Shown: positions 39,154 to 56,346 of the stretch, one piece after another
Numbering within the stretch: the stretch's first letter is position 1
Layout: each line of letters begins with the position of its first letter
DNA from: Patescibacteria group bacterium
Lineage (GTDB): Bacteria; Patescibacteriota; Minisyncoccia; Phycocordibacterales; UBA9973
Direction: 5' to 3'
Length of the DNA stretch: 64,000 nt
Assembly: GCA_030916965.1 (NCBI GenBank)
Contig: JAUPVQ010000012.1
Span: 776 to 64,775 of the forward strand
Notes under the pieces: model-generated
Told to the model about the DNA's origin: nothing
Databases searched by the model: none
Seen by the model: only the letters and a program-made list of their open reading frames with translations
Translations under genes and position numbers: made by a program

Positions 39154-39363
39154 ATATAAAAATATATCCCCTAATCTGGTGATGTCTCGCTTGTTTTCTT
39201 AAAAAGTCATAAACCTCTTAAGGAGAAAAGCGGATCAGCCAAATTAAAGAACTTCCCCTATACTATCAGATAGCCTCATATATGTCAAACCCTTTCACTA
39301 TCGAATACAAGGCTAAATAAAAAGGCTCCTTTCGAAGCCTTTTTTAATAAAAATAATTTTAGT

Positions 39364-39732
39364 TTAGTGAGTCATTAAGACGAATTTGCCGTCTTTGATT
39401 TCATAATTTTTCTCCACAAAGATTCTCTCCCCTTCATCAACGATAATATGAATTCTATCGTTTATTAGTTTTCGCCGTAAATTCATATTGGGGTTTTCGA
39501 CTTTCCCTATCACAATATTATTCACTTTGTCGAAAATTTTGGTATGTATAATCAAATTCTCATCCAACTCTTTAGGTAAAAAATGAAATGGATTCGAAAG
39601 TAGTTGTTTTTTTCTTTGGTTTTCCTTGTAAAATAAATAGGCAAAAATCAAAGCAATGATAGAAACACCGAAGAAAAAATAATTAGGGATGTCCAAGTTG
39701 GACAATTCGTGGATTAAATTTTTTAGATTCAT
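39364..39732 (-). CDS. Hypothetical membrane-anchored protein (122 aa) inserted between rpsN and rplE
   Basis: One N-terminal TM helix, then a soluble domain. Flanked on both sides by terminator-like hairpins. Confidence 0.45.
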   Translation of the reverse strand: MNLKNLIHELSNLDIPNYFFFGVSIIALIFAYLFYKENQRKKQLLSNPFHFLPKELDENLIIHTKIFDKVNNIVIGKVENPNMNLRRKLINDRIHIIVDEGERIFVEKNYEIKDGKFVLMTH

Positions 39733-39788
39733 AATTATAAGGAGTTAAATTTTCTCTCATCATACCCCTTACACTAAAAATGTCAACG

Positions 39789-39816
39789 AAAAAATCCCCT
39801 TTCGGGGACTTCTTAG
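39789..39816 (-). terminator. Intrinsic terminator after rplE
   Basis: Minus strand: GTCCCCgaaaGGGGAT followed by TTTTTTCG. Confidence 0.5.
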
Positions 39817-39821
39817 AAATA

Positions 39822-40361
39822 TTACTTTTTGAATGGAATACCTATGAGTTTGAAGAATTCTAATGCTTCCTTTTTTGTCTTTGCGCTTGTTACTATTGTA
39901 ACTGCCATACCGAATACATCTTTTAGTTCTTCATCTCCTGCTTCTGGGAAGATTGTGTGCTCTTTGATACTCATTGTTAGATTTCCGATATTGTCTACAA
40001 TTTTTGTCTCTATACCACGGAAGTCTTTTGTACGAGGGATTGCAACGTTGATTAGCTTATCTAGGAATGAGTACATACGCGCACCACGTAGTGTAACCAT
40101 TACCCCTACTGGATCCCCTTCACGGATTTTGAAGCTCGCGATAGATTTCTTTGCACTTCGTAGAGCTGGCTTCTGACCTGTGATCTTTGCAAGGCGTCCT
40201 ACAACAAAGTCGTTGCGATTCTTGTCGCGCTTTACAGCACTACCTGTGCCTGTAGCTACAACTACCTTTACCAAATGAGGTGCAGACATCAAATTCTTGT
40301 ATTTGAAGTCGCCTTTCATTGTTGTGTATGCTTTTTTCTCTTTTTGTTTTGTTGTTTCCAT
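39822..40361 (-). CDS. rplE: Ribosomal protein uL5
   Basis: 179 aa. L5 family throughout. Confidence 0.9.
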   Translation of the reverse strand: METTKQKEKKAYTTMKGDFKYKNLMSAPHLVKVVVATGTGSAVKRDKNRNDFVVGRLAKITGQKPALRSAKKSIASFKIREGDPVGVMVTLRGARMYSFLDKLINVAIPRTKDFRGIETKIVDNIGNLTMSIKEHTIFPEAGDEELKDVFGMAVTIVTSAKTKKEALEFFKLIGIPFKK

Positions 40362-40380
40362 ATATTAATTACAAATTAAA

Positions 40381-40599
40381 TTAAGCAACCTTTTTTGCAT
40401 TACTTGCGTCTATTGGCATTGCCATTTCTATTACTTGCCCTGCGCCAGTCTTCTTGCTTGCTTTCTTGCTTCGCTTCTTCATGTTGATACCCTCAACAAC
40501 TATTTTGTTGAGTGTAGGCATAGCTTTCATTACTTTACCTTTTTTACCTTTGTCGCTTCCGGCAAGAATTATTACATTGTCTCCTTTTTTGATTTTCAT
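40381..40599 (-). CDS. rplX: Ribosomal protein uL24 (short, KOW)
   Basis: 72 aa. KIKKGDNVIILAGSDKGKKGKV. Confidence 0.85.
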   Translation of the reverse strand: MKIKKGDNVIILAGSDKGKKGKVMKAMPTLNKIVVEGINMKKRSKKASKKTGAGQVIEMAMPIDASNAKKVA

Positions 40600-40603
40600 A
40601 TAA

Positions 40604-40975
40604 TTATATAACCTCTGGTGCTAATGAAATAATCTTTTGGTAGCCACGCTCTGCTAGCTCTCGTGGAATTGGTCCGAATACACGACCTGCTTTTGGGTCT
40701 TGCTTGTCCTTTTCTAGTATTACTACTGCATTATCATCAAAACGAATATATGATCCATCCTTTCGGCGAAACGCATTTGTAGTACGCACAACTACAGCCT
40801 GACAGACATCCTTCTTCTTTATACCCTTGCGAGGTTCTGCAACCTTTACAGAAAGGATTACTTTGTCGCCAATATAAGCATAACGTCGGCGTGATGAGCC
40901 AAGTACTTTGAAGACCTTGCCAACCTTTCCGCCAGCATTGTCTGTTATTTTTACTACTGTTCCGTCTTGTATCAT
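40604..40975 (-). CDS. rplN: Ribosomal protein uL14
   Basis: 123 aa. MIQDGTVVKITDNAGGK... Confidence 0.9.
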   Translation of the reverse strand: MIQDGTVVKITDNAGGKVGKVFKVLGSSRRRYAYIGDKVILSVKVAEPRKGIKKKDVCQAVVVRTTNAFRRKDGSYIRFDDNAVVILEKDKQDPKAGRVFGPIPRELAERGYQKIISLAPEVI

Positions 40976-40979
40976 ATAA

Positions 40980-41228
40980 TTAAGCTATTACTTTAAATTT
41001 CTTATCTTTAGAGATTGGACGAGTCTCTACGATTTCTACCTTATCCCCTGTTTTCTTGGAATTTGTTTCGTCATGGGCCTTGTACTTCTTGCTGATTTTC
41101 AATCTTTTACCGTATTTTTTGTGCTCTACAAAGCGAGTAACAGATACTACAATAGTCTTGTCCATTTTATCTGAAACAACAACTCCTTTCAATACTTTAT
41201 TCTTTTTTACTTCTGTTTTTTCTTTCAT
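40980..41228 (-). CDS. rpsQ: Ribosomal protein uS17
   Basis: 82 aa. [18 protein letters not shown]... Confidence 0.9.
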
Positions 41229-41234
41229 AAAAAT

Positions 41235-41654
41235 TTATTGACGAGCTACGATGCGTGTCTTTAATGGTAATTTTGTACCAGCCTTGCGCAAAGCCTCACG
41301 AGCAAGAGCTTCTGGAATTCCATCTACTTCGAAAATGATGCGTCCTGGATTTACTTCCATACAGTAACCTTGTGGATCACCTTTACCCTTTCCCATACCT
41401 ACTTCTGCGGGCTTTGCTGTAAATGGTCGGTCTGGAAAAATACGAATCCAAATACGTCCAGCTTTTGTGATAGTACGAGTTGCAACCTTACGAGCAGATT
41501 CGATTTGGTTAGACTTTACGCGAGCGCTTGATGTAGCCTTCAATCCGAATGATCCAAAAGCAAGTGTAATACCCCGAGTATCTGGAGTACGACGCTCCAC
41601 ATTTCTGCGTGCTGTTTGCCATTTTCTAAATTTTACTTTCTTTGGGATTAACAT
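41235..41654 (-). CDS. rplP: Ribosomal protein uL16
   Basis: 139 aa. MLIPKKVKFRKWQ... Only 6 nt separate it from rpsQ, so no rpmC is encoded between them. Confidence 0.9.
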   Translation of the reverse strand: MLIPKKVKFRKWQTARRNVERRTPDTRGITLAFGSFGLKATSSARVKSNQIESARKVATRTITKAGRIWIRIFPDRPFTAKPAEVGMGKGKGDPQGYCMEVNPGRIIFEVDGIPEALAREALRKAGTKLPLKTRIVARQ

Positions 41655-41659
41655 AAAAA

Positions 41660-42322
41660 TTATTTTTTATCTTCATTAAAAATTTCACCACGGTATATCC
41701 ATACTTTGATACCAATATCACCGTATGTCATATGTGCTTTCTCACGAGCAAAGTCTACGTCCGCACGGAATGTCTGCAAAGGAATACTTCCTTTCTTGAT
41801 CTGTTCTGTACGAGCGATTTCAGCTCCACCAAGACGGCCTCCGATGAATATACGTGCCCCTTTTACTCCACGAGCAGCCATAACCTTCTCTATCATTTGC
41901 TTCAATACACGGCGGTATGGTAGGCGCTTCTCCAAGCCCTCAGCAATACCATAAGCAACGATAGCAGCATCTGCATCTGGGTTTGTAACTTCGATAATAT
42001 CGAACTTTACTTCTTCTGGAAGATTGATTTTGCTCTTTGAAAGTGACTTCAACAACTCAGCTTTAAGCTTCGCAGCACCCTCACCACTGCGGCCAATGAT
42101 CATACCTGGGCGTGATGTGTGTACTAGGATCTTCAAACTTTTGTTATTGCGCTCTATGTCAACAGTCGATATGTACATACCACGCAATTTCTTGTCCAAG
42201 AAACGACGGATAAGAACATCACCTGCTAAATTTGAAGCGTAATTTTTGTCAGCAAACCAACGGCTTTTCCAACCGCGTAGTATGACTAATCTATGAGCAT
42301 ATGGGTGTACAACTTTTGACAT
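41660..42322 (-). CDS. rpsC: Ribosomal protein uS3
   Basis: 220 aa. KH domain plus S3-C. Confidence 0.9.
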   Translation of the reverse strand: MSKVVHPYAHRLVILRGWKSRWFADKNYASNLAGDVLIRRFLDKKLRGMYISTVDIERNNKSLKILVHTSRPGMIIGRSGEGAAKLKAELLKSLSKSKINLPEEVKFDIIEVTNPDADAAIVAYGIAEGLEKRLPYRRVLKQMIEKVMAARGVKGARIFIGGRLGGAEIARTEQIKKGSIPLQTFRADVDFAREKAHMTYGDIGIKVWIYRGEIFNEDKK

Positions 42323-42326
42323 ATAA

Positions 42327-42743
42327 TTATTTATCTTCTTTCTTAGCTTTTAAAACCTTGGCTTTTGGGGCCTTTTTAACAGCAACTTTCTTTGCTACTT
42401 TTTTAGCTCCATCCTTTGATCCTACTTCTTTCAATGTAAGCAAAACGTGACTTGTACGCTTGTTGATACGTGATGCACTACCACGAGCTCTTGGCATAGA
42501 GCGCTTCATAACAAGACCCTTGTTTACTGTAACATTTGCAATCACTAGGTTATTGATATCCATTCCTTGCAACTTTGCATTTGCAACTGCTGAATCGAGC
42601 AATTTCATCATTGGTAGACTTGCTCGCTTGATCAAATTGCGAAGCTCTGTTTGAGCTACAACAACACTTTTACCCTTCAACAAATCTCCGACTAAGCGGA
42701 CTTTGCGAGGAGACTGTCTGTAATTTTTGAGTGATGCTTTCAT
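42327..42743 (-). CDS. rplV: Ribosomal protein uL22
   Basis: 138 aa, basic C-terminal tail. Confidence 0.9.
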   Translation of the reverse strand: MKASLKNYRQSPRKVRLVGDLLKGKSVVVAQTELRNLIKRASLPMMKLLDSAVANAKLQGMDINNLVIANVTVNKGLVMKRSMPRARGSASRINKRTSHVLLTLKEVGSKDGAKKVAKKVAVKKAPKAKVLKAKKEDK

Positions 42744-42752
42744 ATATTAAAA

Positions 42753-43097
42753 TTATTTCTTCTTTGTATCTGTTGCACCCTTTGCAGCCTTGGCAGCAGT
42801 AATCTCGGCCTCTTTCTTCTTTTGCTCTAATTCTTTTTGCATTTTACCTCCATGGCGTACGAACTTACGAGTTAGAGAAAATTCTCCTAAACGGTGTCCT
42901 ACCATGTCTTCTGTAACCAATACTTCAACGTGCACCTTACCATTATGTACTCCGAACATGAATCCTACCATTTCTGGAGAAATTTGACATGCACGAGACC
43001 AGGTCTTTATCATACCTGTTTCGATTGGTTTCTTGCCAGCGATTTTTTTCAAAAGTCGCTCGTCTACGTATGGTCCTTTTTTAAGTGATCTTGTCAT
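42753..43097 (-). CDS. rpsS: Ribosomal protein uS19 (with a lysine-rich C-terminal extension)
   Basis: [19 protein letters not shown]... Confidence 0.9.
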
Positions 43098-43190
43098 ATA
43101 TAAAATAAAGCTCTACAGAGCTCGTAAGGTGTATATTATACCAAAGCGTTACAATAGTCAAGTTAATATATTATTGCTATAATAAAATCT

Positions 43191-43826
43191 ATGAATATAA
43201 TCAAATCCAAAGAATTGGCCAAAAAACTCTTGGAAATTAAGGCCGTAAAATTAAATGTTGAAAATCCGTTTACTTGGACATCTGGTACGATATCCCCTAT
43301 TTATTGTGATAATCGTATGGTACTTTCTTATCCAGAAATTCGAACTTTTGTAAAAAATGCTCTGGCTGAAATTATTCAAGACAAATTTCCAAACACAGAA
43401 GTCGTAGCCGGAGTAGCAACTGCAGGAATTGCACATGCAGCACTAGTATCGGATGTATTAAATTTACCGAATTGTTATGTACGTCCCGAGCCAAAAAAAC
43501 ATGGGATGAAAAATCAGATCGAAGGCAATCTACCAAAAGGTAGCAAGGTTGTACTAGTAGAAGATTTGATTGCAACTGGTAAAAGTAGCTTCCAATCAAT
43601 CCAGGCCGTTCGCGAAGCAGGCTCCGAGGTGATTGGGCTTGTGGCATTATTTACGTATGGATTTCCAGATGCAAAAGAATCATTTGATAAAGAAAATATT
43701 CCAACATATACTATTTCAAATTTCGAAACTTTGTGCACAGTTGCAGTAGAAGAAAATTTGCTCGATAAAAATAATCTAGAGAAAGTTATAGAATTCGCCA
43801 AAAACCGCGACGGGTGGAGAAAATAA
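43191..43826 (+). CDS. pyrE: Orotate phosphoribosyltransferase
   Basis: 211 aa. PRPP-binding loop VVLVEDLIATGKS. Confidence 0.85.
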   Translation: MNIIKSKELAKKLLEIKAVKLNVENPFTWTSGTISPIYCDNRMVLSYPEIRTFVKNALAEIIQDKFPNTEVVAGVATAGIAHAALVSDVLNLPNCYVRPEPKKHGMKNQIEGNLPKGSKVVLVEDLIATGKSSFQSIQAVREAGSEVIGLVALFTYGFPDAKESFDKENIPTYTISNFETLCTVAVEENLLDKNNLEKVIEFAKNRDGWRK

Positions 43827-43829
43827 ATA

Positions 43830-44558
43830 CTACTTGGCTATAAGCATTGCATCTATTATTTGTTGCAACACAAGTTGAGCTGCTTCAGCCCTATCTTTTT
43901 GTTGTGTGATACCTCGCCCTACAACAATAGCAGTAGCTCCATTTAAAATTGCATCTTTTGGTGTCATTGTGCGATTTTGATCATTGGTTACTGTCCAATC
44001 AGGTTGGATCCCTGGAGTTATTTTTATCAAATCGTTAAATTGTGGGTCCATGCATAGCATCAATAATTCATTTGGGGAACACACAATACCATCCATTTTT
44101 GAATTGAGTGCATCCTCTGCAAATTGATAAACTTTTTCATTGACTGGTGATCCAAATATATGCAAGCAATCTTCTTCAGTATGAGAAGTCAGTACGGTAA
44201 CACCCAAAATACAAGTATCCCCTTTGTTTTCAACGGCTCTTTCCAATGCTCTTGCTCCAGCTGAGCAATGCACTGTCATCATATCTACATTTTTTTGAAC
44301 CAATTTGGCCGTTGCATGACCTACTGTATTAGGGATATCGTGGAATTTACCATCAAAAAAAACTTTTGCTTTATATTTTTTAACAAGATTTATCATTGTG
44401 TCTATCCCATAAGCAGTACTTACTTCGAGCCCTATTTTATACCATCCACAGAATAAATATGTTTCTTTAATTAAATCTTCGATTTCGCCTAGACTAGCAA
44501 CATTATCGATAGCAATAATTAATTTATCTTTTGGTGTTTTAAATAGATTGTCTTTCAT
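43830..44558 (-). CDS. pyrF: Orotidine-5'-phosphate decarboxylase
   Basis: 242 aa. DGKFHDIPNTV (Lys-Asp-Lys-Asp array) and IVVGRGI. Confidence 0.85.
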   Translation of the reverse strand: MKDNLFKTPKDKLIIAIDNVASLGEIEDLIKETYLFCGWYKIGLEVSTAYGIDTMINLVKKYKAKVFFDGKFHDIPNTVGHATAKLVQKNVDMMTVHCSAGARALERAVENKGDTCILGVTVLTSHTEEDCLHIFGSPVNEKVYQFAEDALNSKMDGIVCSPNELLMLCMDPQFNDLIKITPGIQPDWTVTNDQNRTMTPKDAILNGATAIVVGRGITQQKDRAEAAQLVLQQIIDAMLIAK

Positions 44559-44559
44559 G

Positions 44560-45000
44560 TTAATTTAATATTATTTTTGGTAAGAATATTATCAAGCCTA
44601 TCACACTTGCCACAACAACAGAAATAAGGACTGCTCCTGCCGCGACATCCTTTGTTGCTTTCGCGTATGGGTGATATTCAGGACTAGTAAGATCTATATC
44701 TATCTCCATAGCAGTATTAAATGCCTCTGAAGCGAGCACGAAGCCCATAGCCAGCACTAGAACTGACCATTCAGCATGTGATATATCAAATTTGAAACCA
44801 AGAACTATAGCAACTATAGCTGCCACCATGTGCACCCAAGCATTGTGCTGTGTACGAAGCATAATCCCAATTCCTCGAAAAGCATGCTTGAAGCTACGCG
44901 CCCGAGCAATAATTGAGAAGTTCTTTTTAGTCAAAAATTTATCCATATACAGCATTATAACAAAAAATACCCATAACGGGTATTTTTTGTTATTCACCAA
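44560..45000 (-). CDS. dgkA: Prokaryotic diacylglycerol / undecaprenol kinase (DgkA family)
   Basis: SFKHAFRGI...EAFNTAMEIDIDL...AKDVAAGAVL parallels E. coli DgkA. The start may be at the internal MDKFL. Confidence 0.75.
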   Translation of the reverse strand: MVNNKKYPLWVFFVIMLYMDKFLTKKNFSIIARARSFKHAFRGIGIMLRTQHNAWVHMVAAIVAIVLGFKFDISHAEWSVLVLAMGFVLASEAFNTAMEIDIDLTSPEYHPYAKATKDVAAGAVLISVVVASVIGLIIFLPKIILN

Positions 45001-45010
45001 ACTTAATAAA

Positions 45011-45661
45011 CTAAAGAGGCCTTTGACTTGTTGTAGGATCTAATAACTTACCCATATTAGGAAGAGGAATATCACCTTCTGCTGAGACACTATTTACACC
45101 CGCTTCGTCGGGATTAATAAATTTTGTTATTAATAAAGCTTTAGTTTCTTTATTTATAGTTCCGCTCGCTGGAAGTTTGTATTTCTTTTGGAATTTAGTA
45201 ATTGCTGATTTCGTCATAGATCCATAATTTCCATCTACAGCACTAATTAATCCTTCATTTTTTAAAACAAGTTGTATTTTTTTAACATTTGTATTATTTT
45301 TATTCCCTAAAACAGGTGTTTTTGCATCAAAAACTTGTGAAGCACCAGTTGTAGGAAGTATAGCCCCTCCTCCATAAATACCATCTTCTTGCGGATTTTT
45401 ATTAGCAGAATATCCACGTGTATCACACCAGATCTTTGTACCATCACCTTTCATTTCTCCCCCAACTGTATATGTACTACCATCTGAATATGTAATAGTT
45501 ACCTGGCAAAGATTCCTACCTGAATCAGGATCATGACCTAAATATTTAGTAGTTCGTCCAACCTCATACTTTACTTCTTTTGCAAAAATGAACCCAGTAA
45601 ATGAAACAAACATAAGTATAAAAACAAAACTCCCTAAACCAATTTTTAAAAATTTCTTCAT
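45011..45661 (-). CDS. Secreted protein with a C-terminal peptidoglycan-binding (PG_binding_1-like) domain
   Basis: Signal peptide/anchor MKKFLKIGLGSFVFILMFVSFTGFIFA. C-terminal VKKIQLVLKNEGLISAVDGNYGSMTKSAITKFQKKYKLPASGTINKETKALL. Confidence 0.6.
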   Translation of the reverse strand: MKKFLKIGLGSFVFILMFVSFTGFIFAKEVKYEVGRTTKYLGHDPDSGRNLCQVTITYSDGSTYTVGGEMKGDGTKIWCDTRGYSANKNPQEDGIYGGGAILPTTGASQVFDAKTPVLGNKNNTNVKKIQLVLKNEGLISAVDGNYGSMTKSAITKFQKKYKLPASGTINKETKALLITKFINPDEAGVNSVSAEGDIPLPNMGKLLDPTTSQRPL

Positions 45662-45724
45662 AATATGAATAGAATTAAATTGTGTGTTGTTATAATAAAA
45701 TTACACACAACTTAAACTAATAAC

Positions 45725-45755
45725 ATTGTACCCCCCCCCCTCGGCCTCCTGTCAA
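45725..45755 (-). promoter_or_regulatory. Sigma70-like promoter with a G10 homopolymer inside the -35/-10 spacer
   Basis: Minus strand reads atatTTGACAggaggccgaGGGGGGGGGGTACAATgt: -35 TTGACA, 19-nt spacer ending in G10 (plus-strand C10 at 45731-45740), -10 TACAAT. Lies upstream of 45011..45661. Confidence 0.55.
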
Positions 45756-45794
45756 TATATTGTGGGGATAAATAATTTACTAAATACCCTATAT

Positions 45795-45826
45795 ATAAAT
45801 AATACACATTTAAGCATATGCATAAA
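45795..45826. repeat. Palindromic repeat element, copy A
   Basis: ACACATTTaaGCATATGCatAAATGTGT. About 27/32 identical to copy B. Terminator-like hairpin just 3' of gene 45849..46457. Confidence 0.6.
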
Positions 45827-45848
45827 TGTGTTTCATTTTATTTTTTTA

Positions 45849-46457
45849 CTACTTTTTTCTAATTCTTAGATACAACAATGATACTGCTACTGCGCCTAGG
45901 ACGTCTAGGAGCATATCCTTTTGTGCGTCCCAGATGTCGCCTTGAGAGCCTAGGAAGGCTGCTCCACTCTCCCCTCCATACAATTCTGCATACCACCATT
46001 CTGTCCATTCGTAGAACACAGCCACAAATGCTATAAAAAATATAGAATGAGTTATCGCGAGAAACCTTTTGGCCACCAACTTCCTTTCCACCATGTATTC
46101 AATAATCGGTAATGCATAGAATCCTACTGTAAAGTGCCCAATACGATCATACATATTACGCTCAAATCCGAAAAAGTTATTAAAGAAATCAAATGGTACA
46201 CGCTCAAATGTATAGTGCCCTCCAATAGTATGCCAAAATGGCAATATGAACATTAGTATATATGAAGTATTAGAGAATCGTACACCTCGGTAATATAGGA
46301 TTACTATAAACAAAACGAGCAACATAATAGGAATATTCTCGGCATACCAAACGCTCCGTGAATAAGGATTAATCCCTGCAACAATTGCCTCTATTACATA
46401 AAGGCCCAATAAAATATGTGGTAAATATTTTTTCATATTATAAATTACTAAATACAA
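45849..46457 (-). CDS. Polytopic membrane protein (202 aa), possibly YjdF/DUF2238-like
   Basis: 5-6 TM helices. Motifs HTIGGHYTFERVPF and ERNMYDRIGHF. The family assignment is from memory only. Confidence 0.45.
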   Translation of the reverse strand: MYLVIYNMKKYLPHILLGLYVIEAIVAGINPYSRSVWYAENIPIMLLVLFIVILYYRGVRFSNTSYILMFILPFWHTIGGHYTFERVPFDFFNNFFGFERNMYDRIGHFTVGFYALPIIEYMVERKLVAKRFLAITHSIFFIAFVAVFYEWTEWWYAELYGGESGAAFLGSQGDIWDAQKDMLLDVLGAVAVSLLYLRIRKK

Positions 46458-46776
46458 ATAATAAAATAATCATAGGCACAATAGTTAGAACTAATTCAAC
46501 AATAAAAAATATCCGGGCTATTCTATATGCTGAAGGACTTTTGGTGAAAATAATTACAAGTGCCGGAACAATGAATAATAAGATCGCAAAACTACCAGAA
46601 CTCCTGTTAAAAATAATTGGCAAGAGGAACAAAAAAGCATATATAACAAGCTGTATATAAGCAATAACTAAGATTACTTTAGATTTATGAAATTCTTTTA
46701 CAACAGCACTAACTGGTATTGGAACTGGTGGTGGAGTTATGATAGGTGGTATTTCCATAGATATTTTATTCCCCAA
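46438..46776 (-). CDS. Small 2-3 TM membrane protein (112 aa), paralogue of 47969..48289
   Basis: Pro-rich N-terminus. Shared block VVKEFHKSKVILVIAYIQLVIY versus VVAKEFKKNINAIILACVQIIVII. Confidence 0.5.
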   Translation of the reverse strand: MGNKISMEIPPIITPPPVPIPVSAVVKEFHKSKVILVIAYIQLVIYAFLFLLPIIFNRSSGSFAILLFIVPALVIIFTKSPSAYRIARIFFIVELVLTIVPMIILLFVFSNL

Positions 46777-47218
46777 CTACTTTGTGGCGACTTTGAGTGA
46801 GGTATATACCATATGTACATACGGCAATAAGGGCGAGCATTACTATGTAGAACTGGATTGTAGTGTGATGATTGATGAAATATACACTAACTTGAAGCAG
46901 TAGTTGCATAGCCAAGATTATACTGACCACGAAATATGGTACAAGTGCTACTGCATAACGCTCTTGTCTGTGAGAAAGTGATAGATTCAATACTAATGCA
47001 ATAACTAGGAAGAATATTATTACAACAGCATGCACAATGATCACACCTAAGTTGTCGAAATAGTCGAGCGGTGGCAATGCAATCAAACGGCCTGTATCGT
47101 AGAGTACCCTCTCGGCTAAGGCTAGAAGTGATAGGCCAAGGAGGGTCACAATAAATCCTCCAGTATTTGTAAACTTTGTTTTGAAAACATTTTCATTTTG
47201 TGTTGTTACAAGTGCCAT
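46766..47218 (-). CDS. 4-TM membrane protein (150 aa), same architecture as 48292..48768
   Basis: Overlapping or coupled genes. Hydrophobic profile. Confidence 0.5.
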   Translation of the reverse strand: MALVTTQNENVFKTKFTNTGGFIVTLLGLSLLALAERVLYDTGRLIALPPLDYFDNLGVIIVHAVVIIFFLVIALVLNLSLSHRQERYAVALVPYFVVSIILAMQLLLQVSVYFINHHTTIQFYIVMLALIAVCTYGIYLTQSRHKVVGE

Positions 47219-47222
47219 ATAA

Positions 47223-47867
47223 TTATGATTTCATATATTTTTGAATAAAAAGAATCGATCCTGTAAGTACAATAATTATAAGTATCAATACAACATACAC
47301 ACCATAAGCTGCATTAGCATTCAAAATATAGTTGCTAGTATCCCAAAGTAGTCGTACGAGCAAAAATCCGCTAACCAGGAAGTATGGCTGGGACATAATA
47401 AGGAACTTTTTCTTATGATCTCGGAAAGATTCATGCAAGATAAAAGCCACTACTATAAACGGGACAATCAGCATCACATCAAAAATCAATTTAGCATTTA
47501 TACTATTTGTAAATATAGCACTGTCATCTATTACCTTATTGAGGAGTATAAATATAGCAGCACAAAGCACTGTCGCAAGACCAATACTATATGGTGAATT
47601 GTACTCAACTGAGTGATTCTGGTTAATAGTATGACTACTTGCCACTGTAGACTTAGCAACATTTATAGATACTGTTTGTTGTGGAATATTTATTTGAGCT
47701 GTACCTGCTGGCACCGGCATCCCCTTCAAGAGCTTCATATGTGAATATGCTTCCTCTACTTCATTACTCTGCCATCCAGCCTTGGCCAATACATCCCGAA
47801 CAGCAGACTCGGTAAAACCCTGAGCCTCGACTGTCTTTATATAGTTCACCAACTGCTCATTTATCAT
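47223..47867 (-). CDS. Membrane protein (214 aa) with an N-terminal soluble helical domain
   Basis: N-terminal ~60 aa soluble (LVNYIKTVEAQGFTESAVRDVLAKAGWQSNEVEEAY), then 4 TM helices. Confidence 0.5.
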   Translation of the reverse strand: MINEQLVNYIKTVEAQGFTESAVRDVLAKAGWQSNEVEEAYSHMKLLKGMPVPAGTAQINIPQQTVSINVAKSTVASSHTINQNHSVEYNSPYSIGLATVLCAAIFILLNKVIDDSAIFTNSINAKLIFDVMLIVPFIVVAFILHESFRDHKKKFLIMSQPYFLVSGFLLVRLLWDTSNYILNANAAYGVYVVLILIIIVLTGSILFIQKYMKS

Positions 47868-47935
47868 GTATTTAAATTATACTACTTCTCAAAATTTACA
47901 CAATCAAAAACCAATTTTCCCCTTAATAAAAATGA

Positions 47936-47965
47936 TACACATTCTAGCATATGCTGAAATGTGTA
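47936..47965. repeat. Palindromic repeat element, copy B
   Basis: ACACATTCTAGCATATGCTGAAATGTGT. Near-perfect palindrome followed by a U-run on the minus strand. Confidence 0.6.
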
Positions 47966-47968
47966 TCA

Positions 47969-48289
47969 CTAATTTAATTTAGATAAAACAATACTCAAAA
48001 AATAGAAGAAAAAAAATATATACTCAACAGTCATTAAACTTTTTCCTATCTTATAGATAGATTCATCTTTCTTATTTGAAAACAAAATTAGAAGCGCGGG
48101 AATAATTGCAATTATCCACCAAAATGGGACATAGTAGAGTAAGGATTCTGGGTGAACTCGCACACGAAAAATATTAAATATAATAACAATAATTTGAACA
48201 CAGGCAAGAATAATAGCGTTTATATTCTTTTTGAATTCTTTCGCAACTACCGGCACATTTGATTTATTGTTAATTGTTTGTTGTTCCAT
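47969..48289 (-). CDS. Small membrane protein (106 aa), paralogue of 46438..46776
   Basis: Shared KEF-containing block. 2-3 TM helices. Confidence 0.5.
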   Translation of the reverse strand: MEQQTINNKSNVPVVAKEFKKNINAIILACVQIIVIIFNIFRVRVHPESLLYYVPFWWIIAIIPALLILFSNKKDESIYKIGKSLMTVEYIFFFFYFLSIVLSKLN

Positions 48290-48291
48290 AC

Positions 48292-48768
48292 TTAAGACAT
48301 TGTTTGTTGATCTTGTAAAAAGCTTATCTCGCCTTCATATTTTGTTCTACCTTGCAATCGCTTTGTTACCGATACAAAACTCCCAATTACTACAATATGA
48401 AAGAGAGGGACAATTATAGTTCCACCATATTGCCAGCATAAAAATCCTAGTCCGGCTTCAGTTGCAACACCAGGCACGAACCAACCAACAAAAACTGAAA
48501 GAAACAATACTATTGATACTACCGTATACAAAATATATTTTTTAAAATTTAAAAACATTCCCAAAAATACAATCAAAATAGAGTTTGCAAAAAAATAAAT
48601 ATCCATAGGGCTATTTCTTAAATTATAAAACTCAGAAAAATCCAAATACATTGGGAAATTACCTATCCTTAATGTAAGATGTACAATTGTTAACCAAACA
48701 GACAATATTCCAACAATTATACAAAATATTGCCCATCGATTTCGTTTTTTATCTAAAATAATTTGCAT
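48292..48768 (-). CDS. 4-TM membrane protein (158 aa)
   Basis: Hydrophobic profile. 3 nt from the next gene. Confidence 0.5.
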   Translation of the reverse strand: MQIILDKKRNRWAIFCIIVGILSVWLTIVHLTLRIGNFPMYLDFSEFYNLRNSPMDIYFFANSILIVFLGMFLNFKKYILYTVVSIVLFLSVFVGWFVPGVATEAGLGFLCWQYGGTIIVPLFHIVVIGSFVSVTKRLQGRTKYEGEISFLQDQQTMS

Positions 48769-48813
48769 ACATGTATTGTATCATCTATAAAACAAACTAC
48801 AATCAAAATTTAT

Positions 48814-49548
48814 TTATTTCATGCCTCTTACTAGCTCGATTTCTGATTTTAGCTTTGTTTCGACATCCTTTGAGCTTTTTATAAAGTCTACAACGGTAAA
48901 GCCGTGGTTGGATGTTAGTTCGTCGCTATGATCAGGGGTTGAATTAAATAATGCCGATTTATTACCTGCTGAAAAATTATCCTCTTTTATTAAATCCGGA
49001 TTATTATAATTGCTAATTCCAAAAATATTCTCATTGACAACAAAAAGCTTTCCGTTCGCGCAAATACTCTTACTCTCAGCTTTAAACATAGTCTCGCTAG
49101 TTGGGGGTAGAGTATTAGTTTTGTTTTTTGTTTTTTGATACATTATGATTGCATTTTTGTCACCAAAAGATGCTAGCCTTGATTTATAGTAAATATGCTC
49201 CGAGGAATCTACCTCCCACTTATTTTGAGGTGCTTCTTTGTAAGATTGAAGCAAGTTATGTTTCTTGGCTTCAGCAAATAGGACATCCGAAAGACTATCA
49301 CAGGCCTCTTTGTGCTTATTTATTTCAATTGTTTGCTCTTGTGTAAGCTTTATATTTTGGGTTGCACATTCTACCTTTTTTTGTTGTGCCTCTGAATAAC
49401 CAAAAGATGCTAGAAATAATGCCGATGCCACACCGAACCTCTTAAGTGAAGTGCGTAAAGATTCAAAAGTAGTCGGATCAGTATTTTCCTTGACCTCATT
49501 TTTGTTATTTAGAACATTGTCTTGTGATGCAAAATTAAATTTTTCCAT
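48814..49548 (-). CDS. Hypothetical secreted or membrane-anchored protein (244 aa)
   Basis: Hydrophobic signal-anchor LKRFGVASALFLASFGYSEA after a 35-aa N-terminal stretch. Cys-containing soluble domain. Confidence 0.45.
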   Translation of the reverse strand: MEKFNFASQDNVLNNKNEVKENTDPTTFESLRTSLKRFGVASALFLASFGYSEAQQKKVECATQNIKLTQEQTIEINKHKEACDSLSDVLFAEAKKHNLLQSYKEAPQNKWEVDSSEHIYYKSRLASFGDKNAIIMYQKTKNKTNTLPPTSETMFKAESKSICANGKLFVVNENIFGISNYNNPDLIKEDNFSAGNKSALFNSTPDHSDELTSNHGFTVVDFIKSSKDVETKLKSEIELVRGMK

Positions 49549-49587
49549 GGGTTAATTATAACATGGCCTACATGCAATACAATAAAA

Positions 49588-49622
49588 AATACCCTTGATT
49601 GTTCAGGGGTATTTTTTTAAAA
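49588..49622 (-). terminator. Strong intrinsic terminator directly after rplB
   Basis: AAAAATACCCCTGAACAATCAAGGGTATTTTTT (minus-strand sense). Confidence 0.6.
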
Positions 49623-50474
49623 CTATTTTGATTTTCTTGATTTTCCAACTTTTCTTCGAGATACAACAAACATGTTTGAGTATTTCTTTGGTGTTCGAGT
49701 CTTTTGGCCTTTACCTGTTGGCTTACCATACACACTCTTGGCACGGCGTAGTCCTCGTCCTTGTGCACCTTCACCTCCTCCGTATGGGTGATCCACTGGG
49801 TTCATGGCACTACCTCGAACTGTTGGACGGATACCCTTCCATCGGCTCTTGCCGGCTTTACCAAAGTTTTGAAGAATGTATTCTGAATTTCCAACTTCAC
49901 CGATTGTTGCCCAACATTTCTCGCTAACTTTGCGAACTTCTGTTGAAGGCATTTTCAAGTTTGTATATCCATTGTCATTTGCCACAACTTGCGCAAATGT
50001 ACCAGCACTGCGAACCATCTTTGCACCATTACCTGGCTTGACCTCTACGTTGTATACAAATGTACCAACTGGGATCACTGATAGTGGCAAACGGTTAAGT
50101 GTAGTAAGTGGAGCCTTTTCGGATACCATAAACTTGTCTCCTACTTTGATAGATTTTGGTAGTACTGTGTAGCGCTTCTCACCATCGGCATATACTGCCA
50201 ATCCTATGAATGCATTACGGTTCGGATCATATTCAACAGTTGTGATCTTTGCAGGGATATCATGCTTGTTGTACATGAAGTCTACATCTCGGTATAGGCG
50301 CTTGTTACCACCACCTTTGTGGCGAGTAGTAATACGGCCTTGGTTGTTGCGTCCTACAGAGCGCTTGAATCCATGTGTCAGAGACTTCTCTGGAGTACTT
50401 GTAGTCAAGACACCTCGGTATGTAACTGTAGTCTCGTGACGCTTTGATGGAGTTGTTGGTCTATATGTTTTCAT
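49623..50474 (-). CDS. rplB: Ribosomal protein uL2
   Basis: 283 aa. GRNNQGRITTRHKGGG...PVDHPYGGGEG. Confidence 0.92.
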   Translation of the reverse strand: MKTYRPTTPSKRHETTVTYRGVLTTSTPEKSLTHGFKRSVGRNNQGRITTRHKGGGNKRLYRDVDFMYNKHDIPAKITTVEYDPNRNAFIGLAVYADGEKRYTVLPKSIKVGDKFMVSEKAPLTTLNRLPLSVIPVGTFVYNVEVKPGNGAKMVRSAGTFAQVVANDNGYTNLKMPSTEVRKVSEKCWATIGEVGNSEYILQNFGKAGKSRWKGIRPTVRGSAMNPVDHPYGGGEGAQGRGLRRAKSVYGKPTGKGQKTRTPKKYSNMFVVSRRKVGKSRKSK

Positions 50475-50480
50475 ATTATT

Positions 50481-50801
50481 TTATGCAAATGCAATTTTAT
50501 CACCCTTTTTTAAATACACGACCGCCTTTTTACCACCAGATTTTGTACCAAGTCTACCACCACGGAATGTTGTCTTTTCTTTTCGGATAGTTATAGAAAT
50601 TTTTACAGGTGTAACCTTGTACATTGCCTTGATAGCTTTTGCTACTTCACTCTTGTTTGTAGTTGTCGCTACATTGAAAGTGTATCGTCCCTTCTCAGAG
50701 CCGAGAGCACTCTTTTCTGTAATACGGCTACCGAGGATAACAGAATTGTTTTTTACTTCCTTTACTTTTACTTCTTTAATTTTTTTTGTTGTTGTAGCCA
50801 T
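50481..50801 (-). CDS. rplW: Ribosomal protein uL23
   Basis: 106 aa. Confidence 0.88.
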   Translation of the reverse strand: MATTTKKIKEVKVKEVKNNSVILGSRITEKSALGSEKGRYTFNVATTTNKSEVAKAIKAMYKVTPVKISITIRKEKTTFRGGRLGTKSGGKKAVVYLKKGDKIAFA

Positions 50802-50804
50802 ATA

Positions 50805-51488
50805 TTATTTCTTATTTATCTTACCACCCAAGAAAGCAAAGCTCTCTACTGGCTGTGATATAACTATAAATTTATATGTTAATAGATCAACCGGATTAAT
50901 ATTACGAATCTCGTCTACAACTACAGTTGGCAAGTTAGCAAAACTCTTCTTTACATTTTCGCCTTTTGCTGGAAGTGTAATATAAGTATTTGGCTTCTTG
51001 CTACCAACCATTCTTTCGTATCCTTTTATTTTAGCTAAATCATGTAATACAGATTGAGCGTCTTTTGTTTTGATTTTTGAGAAGTTTAGTTCCTCTACAA
51101 AAAGAACTTGCCCTTTGCGAACTTTCTCTGAAAGTACAGTATAAAGTGCTTTGACTTTCATCTTTTTGTTTACTTTTTGTGTATAAACTCTGTCATTACG
51201 AGGACCATGAGTAATACCTCCACCAATCCAGATTGGTGATCGTGTAGATCCATGACGAGCTCGTCCTGTACCCTTTTGCTTCCATGGCTTCTTGCCTCCA
51301 CCACGCACTTCTCCACGAGTCTTTGTGTGTGCAACTGGTGTACGAGCATTTGCTTGCATTGCCATTACTGTTTGATGTACTAAGTCGGCATTCCAAGGAA
51401 GACCAAATATAGATTCTGGCAACTTCATTGTACCCACTTCTTTTCCTTTTTGATTGTATATTTGTGTTTCCATATAATTAACCGACAA
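50805..51488 (-). CDS. rplD: Ribosomal protein uL4
   Basis: 227 aa. RGGGKKPWKQKGTGRARHGS. Confidence 0.9.
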   Translation of the reverse strand: MSVNYMETQIYNQKGKEVGTMKLPESIFGLPWNADLVHQTVMAMQANARTPVAHTKTRGEVRGGGKKPWKQKGTGRARHGSTRSPIWIGGGITHGPRNDRVYTQKVNKKMKVKALYTVLSEKVRKGQVLFVEELNFSKIKTKDAQSVLHDLAKIKGYERMVGSKKPNTYITLPAKGENVKKSFANLPTVVVDEIRNINPVDLLTYKFIVISQPVESFAFLGGKINKK

Positions 51489-52080
51489 TTTCTACGAGCG
51501 TACCACGTCGTCCTGGAATTGCACCTTTAATTAATAATTGATTATTATCGGCATCAACTCCAACAATTTTTAAGTTCTTGATTGTGATACGGTCTCCACC
51601 TGTGCGTCCTGCCATGCGCATACCTTTTGGTACACGATTTCGCAATCCTCCACCGATAGATCCTGGTTCGCGTTCTGAGTGCTTCTGACCGTGTGATCGT
51701 GGTCCTCCATGGAATCCATGACGCTTGATAACACTTTGGAATCCTTTACCTTTTGAGATACCAGATACAACCACAACATCACCTTTGGCAAAGCTTGAAA
51801 CATCTACTTTGTCCCCTATATTGAGGTCTACACCAACATCACGAAATTCGTGCAAGTGTTTAAATGCGCCAGTTTTTACATGACCAAGGTGTGCTTTGTT
51901 TGCACGCTTTTCTTTTTGAGCTTCAAAACCAAATTGGAATGCTGAATATCCATCTGTTTCTTTGTTTTTGATTTGAGTCACTACGATTGGGCCCGCATTT
52001 ACCAATGTTGCTGGAATCACAGTTCCGTCAACATCAAAATACTGCACCATATGCTGTTTTTTTCCTAGAATAAATTTCAT
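51478..52080 (-). CDS. rplC: Ribosomal protein uL3
   Basis: 200 aa. FKGDVVVVSGISKGKGFQSVIKRHGF. Confidence 0.9.
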   Translation of the reverse strand: MKFILGKKQHMVQYFDVDGTVIPATLVNAGPIVVTQIKNKETDGYSAFQFGFEAQKEKRANKAHLGHVKTGAFKHLHEFRDVGVDLNIGDKVDVSSFAKGDVVVVSGISKGKGFQSVIKRHGFHGGPRSHGQKHSEREPGSIGGGLRNRVPKGMRMAGRTGGDRITIKNLKIVGVDADNNQLLIKGAIPGRRGTLVEIVG

Positions 52081-52085
52081 AAAAT

Positions 52086-52439
52086 TTACATCATCTTCAC
52101 ATCAATATCAACGCCTGACGGGAGAGACATGTTAGTTAGAGCTTCGATTGTCTTTGGATTTGGGTTCAAGATATCGATGACACGCTTGTGTGTACGAATT
52201 TCAAACTGCTCGCGAGCATTTTTAAACACAAAGGATGCACGGTTTACTGTATACTTTTTGATTTCAGTTGGAAGAGGTATTGGTCCTACAATAGTTGCAT
52301 CATAGCGTAGAGCTGTATCAATAATTTGCTTGACTGAAGTGTCAAGAATCTTGTTCTCGTATGCTCTTACACGGATGCGTAGTCGAACTACACCTTCTTC
52401 TTTCTTAATTTTTTCTTTTTTTACGGTCTTTGTTGCCAT
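52086..52439 (-). CDS. rpsJ: Ribosomal protein uS10
   Basis: RLRIRVRAYENKILD...GPIPLPT. Confidence 0.9.
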   Translation of the reverse strand: MATKTVKKEKIKKEEGVVRLRIRVRAYENKILDTSVKQIIDTALRYDATIVGPIPLPTEIKKYTVNRASFVFKNAREQFEIRTHKRVIDILNPNPKTIEALTNMSLPSGVDIDVKMM

Positions 52440-52476
52440 ACATTTGTGAATTTTTTAAATCCAAATTTTAAAGAGC

Positions 52477-53676
52477 TTAAGCAGTAATCTTTGTTACAAC
52501 ACCAGCTCCGACAGTCTTGCCACCTTCACGGATTGCGAAACGTTGCTGATCTTCTAGCGCTACTGGAGTTACCAATTTAACAGATAGTTTAACTGTATCA
52601 CCTGGCATAACCATTTCTACTCCTGCTGGTAATGCAGCCTCCCCTGTTACATCAGTAGTACGGATGTAGAATTGTGGCTTGTATCCAGTAAAGAATGGAG
52701 TGTGGCGACCACCTTCCTCCTTTTTCAAGATATAAACTTCACATTCAAATGCTGAGTGAGGAGTCACAGTACCTGCTTTTGCAAGAACTTGTCCGCGTGT
52801 TAGGTCTTCTTTCTTTACACCGCGAAGTAGGATTCCAGCGTTGTCGCCAGCCATACCCTCTTTCAAGTTTTTGTTGAACATTTCGATACCAGTAACAGTA
52901 GTCTTTGCTGTGTCTTTGATACCAACGATTTCGATTTCTTCACCTACCTTAACAATTCCGCGCTCGATTTTACCTGTAACAACTGTTCCACGGCCTTCGA
53001 TAGAGAATATATCTTCGATTGGCATAAGGAATGGCTTTGTAACATCACGCTCTGGAACTGGGATATATGTATCAAGAGCATTTACAAGCTCCAATACTTT
53101 CTTTGCCCATTCATCGTTGTTGTCAGCTGACTCAAGAGCTTTCAAGCCTGATCCACGGATAACTGGAGCATTTGCGCCATCAAAACCTTGTTTTGTAAGC
53201 AATTCACGGATTTCTTCTTCTACCATGTCTATCATGTCTTTGTCATCAACCATGTCGCATTTGTTTAAGAATACGATGATCTTTGGAACACCAACTTGTT
53301 TTGCAAGCAATACGTGCTCACGAGTTTGTGGCATAGCTCCGTCTGTTGCGGCAACTACCAATACAGCACCGTCCATTTGGGCAGCACCTGTGATCATGTT
53401 CTTGATATAGTCAGCGTGACCTGGCGCATCGATGTGCGCGTAGTGACGAGTAGGAGTTTCGTATTCGTTGTGAGAAAGCGCGATAGTAATACCACGAGCC
53501 TTTTCTTCTGGAGCGGAGTCAATTGCATCAACGCCTTTTAATTTAGCTGAGAAGCCATCCCCTGCACGAGCAAGGATACTTAGAATAGCTGCTGTTAATG
53601 TTGTTTTCCCGTGGTCAACGTGGCCAATAGTACCTACGTTTACATGGGGCTTTGAACGGTTAAATTCTTCTGCCAT
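52477..53676 (-). CDS. tuf: Elongation factor Tu
   Basis: 399 aa. [25 protein letters not shown]. Confidence 0.95.
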
Positions 53677-55280: not shown

Positions 55281-55285
55281 ATTAA

Positions 55286-56338: not shown

Positions 56339-56346
56339 ACTTAATA

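Follow-up and report, generated by a model that had tools for sequence, protein, structure and literature searches.

The adjacency of rplB and rpsS in the S10-spc cluster of ribosomal-protein genes is treated as near-invariant, and it is used in synteny marker sets that include the 16 ribosomal proteins for phylogeny of the Candidate Phyla Radiation (CPR). Chromosomal hot spots and hypervariable islets between core genes combine conserved flanks with highly variable content, including many ORFans and envelope proteins. For this same cluster in Gammaproteobacteria and Bacilli, an "invasion-separation" mode of breaking up concatenated operons has been described, as has the replacement of single genes in place; the insertions detailed there lie mostly between canonical operons and are rare over very long timescales (PMC8046335). 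Here we analyze a 64-kb window (the whole stretch of DNA under study, 64,000 nucleotides of the Patescibacteria contig JAUPVQ010000012.1) in which a 6,525-bp interval separates rplB from rpsS. We consider it probable that the break is no recent local insertion but a long-standing operon boundary, shared across the lineage and equipped with a terminator and a promoter of its own. Literature searches found no prior description of such an arrangement in Nomurabacteria or Parcubacteria.

The window serves as the reference, all coordinates are window positions, and its ribosomal genes lie on the minus strand. Read along that strand, the order is tuf, rpsJ, rplC, rplD, rplW, rplB, the 6,525-bp interval, rpsS, rplV, rpsC, rplP, rpsQ, rplN, rplX, rplE, a 122-aa open reading frame (ORF), rpsN, rpsH, rplF, rplR, rpsE, rplO, secY, adk, pyrH, and map, and every named gene was confirmed at its coordinates by Pfam. 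This map bears out the preliminary description of the locus as to the split between rplB and rpsS, the genes listed within it, and the 122-aa gene wedged between rpsN and rplE (39364-39732). The landmarks are as follows.

52477-53676, minus strand: tuf.
49623-50474, minus strand: rplB.
43098-49622: the rplB-rpsS interval, 6,525 bp with 11 genes.
42753-43097, minus strand: rpsS.
49623-53676, minus strand: putative transcription unit 1, tuf-rpsJ-rplC-rplD-rplW-rplB, genes assigned by Pfam, with tight junctions in relatives (medians 19-119 bp).
39822-43097, minus strand: putative transcription unit 2, rpsS-rplV-rpsC-rplP-rpsQ-rplN-rplX-rplE, genes assigned by Pfam, without rpmC.

The interval had been described as a local 6.5-kb insert into an otherwise intact operon, for which a shared split in related genomes would leave little room. 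For the synteny comparison we used 80 related Nomurabacteria loci (L001-L080; rplB 67-86% identical), fetched with 10-kb flanks on each side; the ribosomal genes were located in them, and 15 gene junctions from tuf to rpsH were measured. The best rplB matches carry the annotation Candidatus Nomurabacteria or Paceibacterota, which places the genome among the CPR/Patescibacteria. Across the 80 loci, two of the 15 junctions are expanded, namely rplB|rpsS and rplE|rpsN, while the other 13 have median gaps of 16-119 bp, or 238 bp where rpmC sits. An rpsS gene is found downstream of rplB in 62 of the 80 loci, at a distance of at least 84 bp in all 62 (median 838 bp, range 84-7,341 bp, more than 350 bp in 50/62). 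In eight further loci the available downstream sequence, which extends for at least 1.5 kb and in seven cases for 10 kb, contains no rpsS. The gap between rplE and rpsN has a median of 1,045 bp (range 163-4,258 bp) and exceeds 350 bp in 29 of 45 loci. The local-insertion reading fails because the related genomes, all 62 with a locatable rpsS, carry the same split.

The split is genuine in this genome as well. A misassembly that joined 6.5 kb between truly adjacent rplB and rpsS genes had been raised as a caveat, and we now assign it a negligible probability: independent Logan assemblies from four other sequencing runs give the same sequence at 100% identity, and a single 11,546-bp contig among them (L081, SRR24011142) is 100% identical from rplC to rplN and runs through both junctions. 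The contigs L082, L083, and L087, from other runs, agree with the window. In addition, contigs from other projects (JGI 3300043411 and GCA_001458635.1) have pyrE(-) beside rpsS. The sign denotes orientation opposite to the ribosomal genes, here and in the gene orders of relatives given below, so that the window pyrE, which lies on the plus strand of the window, is listed as pyrE(-).

Both expanded junctions are marked by predicted terminators.

49587-49614, minus strand: T1, an intrinsic terminator directly after the rplB stop codon, with an A-tract, an ATACCC...GGGTAT stem, and a T-tract.
39789-39808, minus strand: terminator hairpin after rplE.

The strong terminator previously noted after rplB thus corresponds to T1, which has the sequence features of an intrinsic (Rho-independent) terminator. 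Its stem is predicted to comprise 8 bp with one mismatch (RNAfold -11.7 to -14.2 kcal/mol, depending on the segment folded), and because of this mismatch it was overlooked by a simple terminator scan. A strong hairpin followed by a T-run occurs no more than 100 nt downstream of rplB in 67 of 78 loci (86%) and of rplE in 36 of 56, and the terminator-like score after 11 of the other 13 genes is 0-16%. Downstream of rpsQ, an outlier in this respect, a terminator-like hairpin and T-run are found within 100 nt in 22 of 61 loci; this may be a coding-sequence artefact or an internal attenuator.

On the other side of each cut, the first gene has a predicted promoter and a candidate leader RNA, and the same is true of tuf at the head of the cluster.

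43098-43161, minus strand: rpsS promoter, hairpin, and U-rich tract; TTGACT at 43156-43161, then TGGTATAAT.
53758-53806, minus strand: tuf/S10 promoter; TTGACA at 53801-53806, TAGTAT at 53779-53784, GC hairpin at 53758-53770, U-rich tract.
39154-39288, minus strand: rpsN promoter and leader of about 105 nt; TTGACA, 17-nt spacer, and TAGTAT at 39260-39288.

The rpsS element has the consensus TTGAC(A/T), a 17-nt spacer, TTTGCTAGTAT, 7-9 nt, a hairpin of the form (A/G)GCUC-loop-GAGC(U/C), a U-rich tract, and the ATG. In the window the hairpin has 6 bp (GAGCTC/GAGCTT, 43108-43123) and the U-rich tract reaches the ATG. The survey took in the window, L086, and those related loci that have rpsS, 65 sequences in all; the pattern matches 62 of them, and one more (L077) was recognized by eye, giving 63/65. 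Loci with a total gap of no more than 84-250 bp keep the element too. Pairing of the helix reaches 93.9% in alignment A1, which holds 63 sequences, and there are a few AU-to-GC and UA-to-CG double changes. The motif is also specific: of its 67 matches in 1.29 Mb, 55 lie upstream of rpsS, which rules out a generic terminator. Protection of the mRNA 5' end is the most likely role of this hairpin, with an attenuator as the alternative; the stabilizing role is favored because the hairpin begins at about the predicted 5' end of the transcript.

The rpsN leader (39154-39259) is a different structure, predicted to consist of two covarying helices around an internal loop (UUCUCC / GAAAA). Helix 1 pairs AUC(C/U)G... 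with ...GAU, and helix 2, CUUAAG-like, closes a variable hairpin. This structure occurs in 41 of 46 sequences (the window and related loci) and is 92% paired with many compensatory changes, several pairs showing 2-4 standard pair types among the 41 sequences. The rpsS and rpsN elements both have the properties of predicted conserved structures in the 5' untranslated region (5'-UTR), the latter by covariation and the former with weak covariation. Rfam gave no family at the gathering threshold for the window leaders, and nothing relevant at E<=5 in 39100-43250. The rpsN element is a candidate new ribosomal-protein leader, and possibly a relocated S8 or S14 feedback site. At tuf, the layout of promoter, short GC hairpin, and U-tract is present in 57 of 64 sequences (the window and 63 related loci), with a near-consensus -35 and an extended -10 element. 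Its hairpin (CUGCA/UGCAG, or CGCA/UGCG in close relatives) is unlike that of rpsS, and the layout common to both suggests a lineage-wide design for strong ribosomal-gene promoters.

Short repeats were also seen at start codons in several related loci. One is a unit of about 62 nt ending ...CCTTAATTTATG immediately before start codons, which L012 carries three times in tandem; a second type, likewise immediately before start codons, consists of a GTCGCGC...GCGCGAC hairpin and then ATGATTTCGCTAAATCA. Such repeats occur before rpsN in L012, L002, L072, and L049 and before rpsS in L045, L050, and L072, and they look like small mobile or duplicating 5'-UTR modules.

The genes between rplB and rpsS were then compared with those at the same site in relatives. 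From rplB onward, the interval holds ORFs of 244, 158, 106, 214, 150, and 112 aa, a DUF2238 gene, a peptidoglycan (PG)-binding protein gene, dgkA, pyrF, and pyrE. The 158-, 106-, 214-, 150-, and 112-aa proteins each have 3-4 hydrophobic segments.

49555-49582, minus strand: promoter-like site of the 244-aa gene; TTGTAT, 16-nt spacer, TATAAT.
47969-49548, minus strand: Module A (244-, 158-, and 106-aa genes), present only in assemblies of this strain.
48814-49548, minus strand: 244-aa ORF of Module A, no family match.
48292-48768, minus strand: 158-aa membrane ORF of Module A, 4 transmembrane (TM) segments.
47969-48289, minus strand: 106-aa membrane ORF of Module A, a weak paralogue of the 112-aa ORF.
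45849-47867, minus strand: Module B (214-, 150-, and 112-aa genes and the DUF2238 gene).
47223-47867, minus strand: 214-aa membrane protein, a paralogue of the 150-aa protein.
46766-47218, minus strand: 150-aa membrane protein.
46438-46776, minus strand: 112-aa membrane protein.
45849-46457, minus strand: DUF2238 membrane protein.
45725-45755, minus strand: promoter-like site of the PG-binding gene; TTGACA, 19-nt spacer, TACAAT.
45011-45661, minus strand: 216-aa PG_binding_1 protein with an N-terminal, signal-peptide-like hydrophobic segment.
44560-44946, minus strand: dgkA (DAGK_prokar), counted from the ATG.
43830-44558, minus strand: pyrF, subfamily 1 (NF001273, 197 bits, above the cut-off).
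43191-43826, plus strand: pyrE, orotate phosphoribosyltransferase (TIGR00336, 147 bits, above the cut-off), divergent from rpsS.
39319-39786, minus strand: cargo of the second slot, rplE|rpsN, with a promoter at 39759-39786, a 122-aa ORFan with one TM segment at 39364-39732, and a terminator at 39319-39345.

The two promoter-like sites within the interval are read from sequence. That of the 244-aa gene has a -10 element ending 6 nt before the ATG, so that its mRNA may be leaderless. A run of ten G residues (45731-45740) lies inside the promoter spacer of the PG-binding gene, with the same length in three independent assemblies, and could be a slipped-strand phase-variation switch. The 244-, 158-, 106-, 214-, 150-, 112-, and 122-aa proteins match no Pfam, NCBIfam, or PADLOC family.

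The gene orders from rplB onward in the closer relatives used for the history of the site (L084, L086, L095, and L096) are given below, with numbers standing for ORF lengths in aa.

L096 (rplB 88% identical): dgkA, pyrF (subfamily 2), pyrE(-).
L095 (rplB 96% identical): 215, 151, 109, DUF2238, dgkA, pyrE'(+), pyrF (subfamily 2).
L086 (rplB 97% identical): 231, 209, 150, 112-like, dgkA, pyrE', pyrF.
L084 (98.6% nucleotide identity, identical rplB): 344, DUF2238, dgkA ... (contig ends).
Window: 244, 158, 106, 214, 150, 112, DUF2238, PG-binding, dgkA, pyrF (subfamily 1), pyrE(-).

Relatives whose rplB is 96-100% identical carry different cargo, including non-orthologous pyrE and pyrF genes. L084 has a single 344-aa gene where the window has six genes; this protein matches no NCBIfam or PADLOC family, and the 231-aa protein of L086 no NCBIfam family. 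Homologues of Module A are absent from L001-L080, L084, L086, and L095, and the PG-binding gene is missing from L084, L086, and L095. The window pyrE is orthologous to that of L096 (85% identical, same place and strand) and differs from the pyrE of L095 and L086 (24% identical), and no similarity was detected between the window pyrF and the subfamily-2 genes of relatives. Since non-orthologous versions occur within a narrow clade, pyrE and pyrF have been displaced in place. At the second slot, which falls within 38968-39822 of the window, the 122-aa gene has no homologue in any related locus; L086 has a different ORF of 25 codons and L095 a different ORF of 126 aa, and relatives have type IV pilin-like genes in tandem, along with small membrane ORFans and AbrB-like genes. 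The content of the rplB|rpsS slot turns over very fast, down to strain level.

A recent mobile element or genomic island, inserted into an intact S10 operon of this genome, is a very improbable source of the interval. What points to such an event is confined to a part of it, where repeated elements are found.

44965-44985, minus strand: T2, the other copy of the rplB terminator module, immediately ahead of dgkA.
45787-45848: 62-nt palindromic hairpin repeat, copy 1, about -15 kcal/mol.
47920-47981: 62-nt palindromic hairpin repeat, copy 2, terminator-like, -20.3 kcal/mol.

The likeness of T1 and T2 reaches into their flanks (44952-44972 vs 49574-49594, 86%), and the terminator motif has exactly 2 copies in the 64 kb where 0 are expected. 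These direct repeats of a module of about 45 nt, each predicted to work as a terminator, bracket the whole 4.6-kb block upstream of dgkA, and not the whole 6.5 kb; no recombinase is present. Inside this block, a 2.1-kb module comprising the 214-150-112-DUF2238 segment is bracketed by the two 62-nt palindromes, which are near-perfect, 76% identical to each other, the only two in the window, and found only in assemblies of this strain. The block also has a GC content of 30-35% against about 40% in the ribosomal genes, and its 244-, 158-, and 106-aa and PG-binding genes are missing from the closest relatives. However, the GC content is just as low elsewhere in the window, the operon is already split in all relatives, and dgkA, pyrE, and the 214/150/112-aa trio are syntenic in relatives. 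As the preliminary description had stated, no integrase, transposase, or tRNA is found in or beside the interval (Pfam, NCBIfam, PADLOC, and tRNA searches), nor does a relaxase or phage gene lie in or adjoining the block. Among mobility families (integrase, recombinase, transposase, and conjugation), the rest of the window has only a VirD4-like ATPase, 10 kb off, after map, and its only tRNA (7880-7954) and transfer-messenger RNA (10444-10834) are more than 30 kb from the interval. A phage or plasmid origin of the 4.6-kb block was also rejected: phage records show no similarity to it, and plasmid records one 90-bp match at chance level. No empty site exists among the closest relatives, all of which are filled; gaps without a called ORF (84-250 bp) are restricted to distant loci with rplB 71-77% identical, and there the rpsS promoter is already present. 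An island could at most explain the strain-specific part, and for the interval as a whole it is refuted by the synteny of relatives. An integron cassette array was likewise rejected, as there is no integrase and the 62-nt palindromes are without the GTTRRRY attC core. Lacking a recombinase, a neighboring tRNA, and an empty site among the closest relatives, the interval does not qualify as a mobile island, and it does not qualify as an integron either.

Relatives have a single terminator copy, after rplB, and none before dgkA, and the junction of T2, a promoter-like site, and dgkA resembles the rplB-terminator-dgkA junction of relatives without the membrane trio. Import or rearrangement via recombination at the terminator module would account for this pattern. 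The mechanically called dgkA ORF, which starts at a TTG at 45000, overlaps T2.

In the wider set of 80 loci, dgkA directly follows rplB in 26, and pyrE, pyrF (subfamily 2), dihydroorotase (pyrC), and dihydroorotate dehydrogenase (pyrD) occur in nested subsets of relatives. Among cargo ORFs with a length of 70 aa or more, over 100 are singletons, and no mobility genes were recognized in the cargo of the 80 relatives. Gaps of more than 10 kb hold ordinary housekeeping genes, which we take to be those for ComEC, SodA, GlyA, Tmk, Dut, and ArgS, or for FtsW, FolD, SecDF, and LemA. An enrichment of envelope proteins in the cargo was considered and found unconvincing, with a hydrophobic segment in 31 of 100 ORFs other than dgkA and pyr genes.

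The 214-aa family behaves differently from the strain-specific genes. It comprises 38 clusters, all named ones from Patescibacteria, and in every context examined (L086, L095, and the further contexts L099 and L101-L103) it lies directly after the rplB terminator and before dgkA. A hidden Markov model (HMM) search found it absent from L001-L080, which are 80 species representatives. A roaming cassette of 214/150/112-aa genes is ruled out, all contexts examined being the same slot, and the family is read as a module that is inherited vertically, evolves fast, and is often lost. For the 214-aa protein, an AlphaFold2 model built on 38 sequences (predicted local distance difference test score 73) predicts three helices forming an N-terminal domain, followed by a disordered linker and then 4 TM helices, and Foldseek gave no match of this model to the PDB with E<1.

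These distributions might instead reflect mostly differential loss, in which one large ancestral insert (the membrane trio, dgkA, and pyrF/E/D/C) was eroded in streamlining CPR genomes. The 214-aa family occurs only at this site, in lineages with 214-aa proteins 45-58% identical to that of the window, the position of dgkA is constant, the nested subsets of pyr genes are of the kind that erosion would leave, and minimal versions of 530-560 bp hold dgkA only. Erosion does not, however, provide the more than 100 singleton ORFs without homologues in other loci, and the non-orthologous versions of pyrE and pyrF require gain. The strain-level differences at 98.6% flanking identity, the unrelated cargo of more distant loci and of the second slot, and the terminator duplication, which indicates an insertion event, also speak against it. 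We regard predominant loss as possible, though doubtful.

Selected co-location is a further alternative, and in our view an unlikely one. Leaky read-through from the strong ribosomal promoters would couple cargo expression to growth rate, and the slot itself would be functional. The recurrence of dgkA in 26 of 80 loci would fit. The genes pyrE, pyrF, pyrC, and pyrD recur as well, and non-orthologous versions have even taken their place at the site, as if the function were being retained there by selection. Some two thirds of the cargo ORFs share the orientation of the ribosomal genes, the dgkA of L096 follows rplB without a terminator, and an archaeal-type pyrH and adk lie in the spc tail of the same cluster. 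Against read-through stand the strong terminator after rplB in 86% of loci, the promoter-like sites of the cargo genes themselves, and the placement of pyrE, pyrC, and pyrD mostly on the opposite strand. Moreover, the slot of many relatives contains dgkA alone or nothing, and the second slot holds cargo of an unrelated kind, namely pilin-like genes and ORFans.

Based on the above data, we propose, with good though not full confidence, that a derived operon boundary has become an "invasion-separation" hot spot for variable cargo. The ancestral S10-spc row would have been divided into three units, one running from tuf to rplB, one from rpsS to rplE, and one from rpsN to map. The first would end at rplB with a strong bidirectional intrinsic terminator, and rpsS would have its own near-consensus promoter of the sigma-70 type, giving a transcript that starts with a 6-bp hairpin followed by a U-rich tract. 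DNA arriving at the junction would be harmless to ribosomal-protein stoichiometry because there would no longer be any obligatory read-through there, and rplB|rpsS and rplE|rpsN would in this way have become permissive slots. Genes with their own promoters and terminators would then be gained, duplicated, replaced, and lost by recombination in the slots, and in some lineages the two halves may have drifted more than 10 kb apart. The interval of the window can be read as three layers: a presumably old one, with dgkA and the pyrimidine genes near rpsS; a clade-restricted one, with the vertically inherited 214/150/112-aa trio, which DUF2238 adjoins in the window, L095, and L084; and a strain-specific one, with the 244/158/106-aa genes and the peptidoglycan-binding protein. 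The 4.6-kb block between two terminator copies would be the pattern expected of recombination at that module.

Several points weigh against this proposal or limit it. The age of the boundary is judged from one clade, to which all sampled loci belong, and the rplB homologue search gave only relatives at least 80% identical. The boundary is not universal, as L096 is without a terminator between rplB and dgkA. ORFs in the related loci were called mechanically, and promoters and terminators were assigned by their match to a consensus, supported only by conservation. The rpsS helix shows modest covariation, with 8 doubly changed cells only, and because it is mostly conserved in sequence, constraint on structure is not cleanly separable from constraint on sequence; a hairpin and U-tract right behind a promoter could also terminate transcription and not stabilize the mRNA. 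Lastly, part of the hot-spot pattern may be differential loss from a larger ancestral insert, and the constant presence of the 214-aa family at one site argues for vertical inheritance over repeated gain for that module.

A bolder extension of the proposed hot spot, to which we give little credence, is that both boundaries are dedicated gene-capture sites of Nomurabacteria, in which the terminator hairpin is the recombination target and modules are flanked by terminator copies. If true, this would be a cassette system independent of an integrase, or using an unknown recombinase, beside the strongest promoters of the cell, where it would generate diversity among envelope proteins and exchange genes of nucleotide metabolism. 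The rpsS 5' hairpin and the rpsN leader would join it as two ribosomal-protein regulatory RNAs not described before.

The missing rpmC and rpmD genes had been taken as further signs of operon erosion. Both genes are indeed missing from their slots: the rplP-rpsQ gap is 6 nt and the rpsE-rplO gap 4 nt, leaving no room for either, and neither L29 nor L30 was detected in the 64-kb window (an L29 HMM from sister lineages and E. coli and B. subtilis probes). Nor was rpmC found within 10 kb of rplB in close relatives. The erosion itself is another matter. The rplP-rpsQ gap is 11-67 bp, with rpmC missing from the slot, in 24 related loci, which take in nearly all those with rplB at least 78% identical, and it is 203-443 bp, with a recognizable L29 ORF, in about 36 others. 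The missing rpmC is not a local decay, because it is shared across a group of relatives, and the loss of rpmD is a CPR trait. The protein uL30 is absent across CPR, and uL29 has been lost in a lineage-specific manner (PMC9297842). The locus accordingly displays a reduced ribosomal protein set of the CPR type.

Other features of the window lie outside the two slots. A purine de novo cluster (10887-22843, minus strand; Pfam) contains purB, purC, purM, purE, a 278-aa ORF, purD, purN, purF, purQ, and purL; CPR bacteria are typically without nucleotide biosynthesis, and a contiguous purine cluster is unusual for them. The spc tail (30407-34636, minus strand) has adk, an archaeal-type UMP kinase (TIGR02076, above the cut-off), map, and a 907-aa VirD4/TraG-like coupling ATPase, the last standing after map in place of infA-rpmJ-rpsM-rpsK-rpsD-rpoA-rplQ. 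Upstream of tuf (53814-63938, minus strand) there is no rpsL-rpsG-fusA, and large predicted surface proteins are found instead, namely one with a cohesin domain (488 aa), one of the fn3/Big type (453 aa), and one with a G8 domain (1,460 aa), together with a stand-alone GIY-YIG nuclease of 90 aa (57198-57470, minus strand). Cohesin-domain genes also lie upstream of tuf in L095 and L096. The tRNA at 7880-7954 (minus strand) is a tRNA-Ile with the anticodon TAT (UAU). Most bacteria decode AUA with a lysidine-modified CAU tRNA, and the tRNA-Ile(UAU) suggests a different AUA-decoding strategy.

The arrangement indicates that even the most conserved operon can be re-partitioned, a CPR lineage having made regular boundaries of two of its junctions. 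It offers a natural test case for ribosomal-protein stoichiometry when the L4 and S8 feedback sites are redistributed. As landmarks of strain-level variation in streamlined genomes, the slots could aid strain typing and the search for envelope and host-interaction genes in uncultured Patescibacteria. They also carry a warning, in that contigs of this lineage may legitimately lack "adjacent" ribosomal markers or break at the slots.

How these elements relate to known systems can be considered from the RNA outward. Stabilizing stem-loops at mRNA 5' ends are known from the E. coli ompA and the B. subtilis aprE and ermC leaders. By analogy, a hairpin that starts 7-9 nt after the -10 element, at rpsS and tuf alike, would resemble them, whereas a U-tract behind the hairpin is not a feature of known stabilizers; a beta-CASP RNase J-like gene is present in the window. 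With the ribosomal leaders of E. coli (L4 attenuation of S10 and the S8 site of spc), the window elements share a conserved 5'-UTR RNA before the first gene of a unit. The rpsS hairpin and U-tract are attenuator-like in this respect, but the hairpin has only 6 bp, sits at about the predicted 5' end, and has no Rfam match.

The canonical S10-spc cluster of bacteria runs rpsJ-rplCDWB-rpsS-rplV-rpsC-rplP-rpmC-rpsQ and continues with rplNXE-rpsNH-rplFR-rpsE-rpmD-rplO-secY. Compared with it, all retained genes keep the same order on one strand. Terminators, promoters, and cargo, however, break up the row at rplB|rpsS and rplE|rpsN, and rpmC and rpmD are missing; tuf, and not an L4-regulated leader, heads the first unit, and neither the str operon (rpsL-rpsG-fusA) nor the alpha operon adjoins the cluster. 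It is thus not a contiguous S10 operon, though its order is that of one, save rpmC. Compared with chromosomal hot spots and hypervariable islets, the flanks here are ribosomal-protein genes of a normally single operon, and there is no integrase or tRNA anchor. The likeness to invasion-separation lies in unrelated genes between co-linear units, in the disconnection of the units in some descendants, and in distant homologues swapped in place, and the gaps seen here form a series that begins at 84 bp, passes through a few kb, and ends beyond 10 kb. Unlike the insertions described for that process, the breaks of this lineage lie inside the canonical S10 and spc operons and are fixed lineage-wide, they are accompanied by conserved new promoters and leaders, and their cargo turns over at the level of species and strains.

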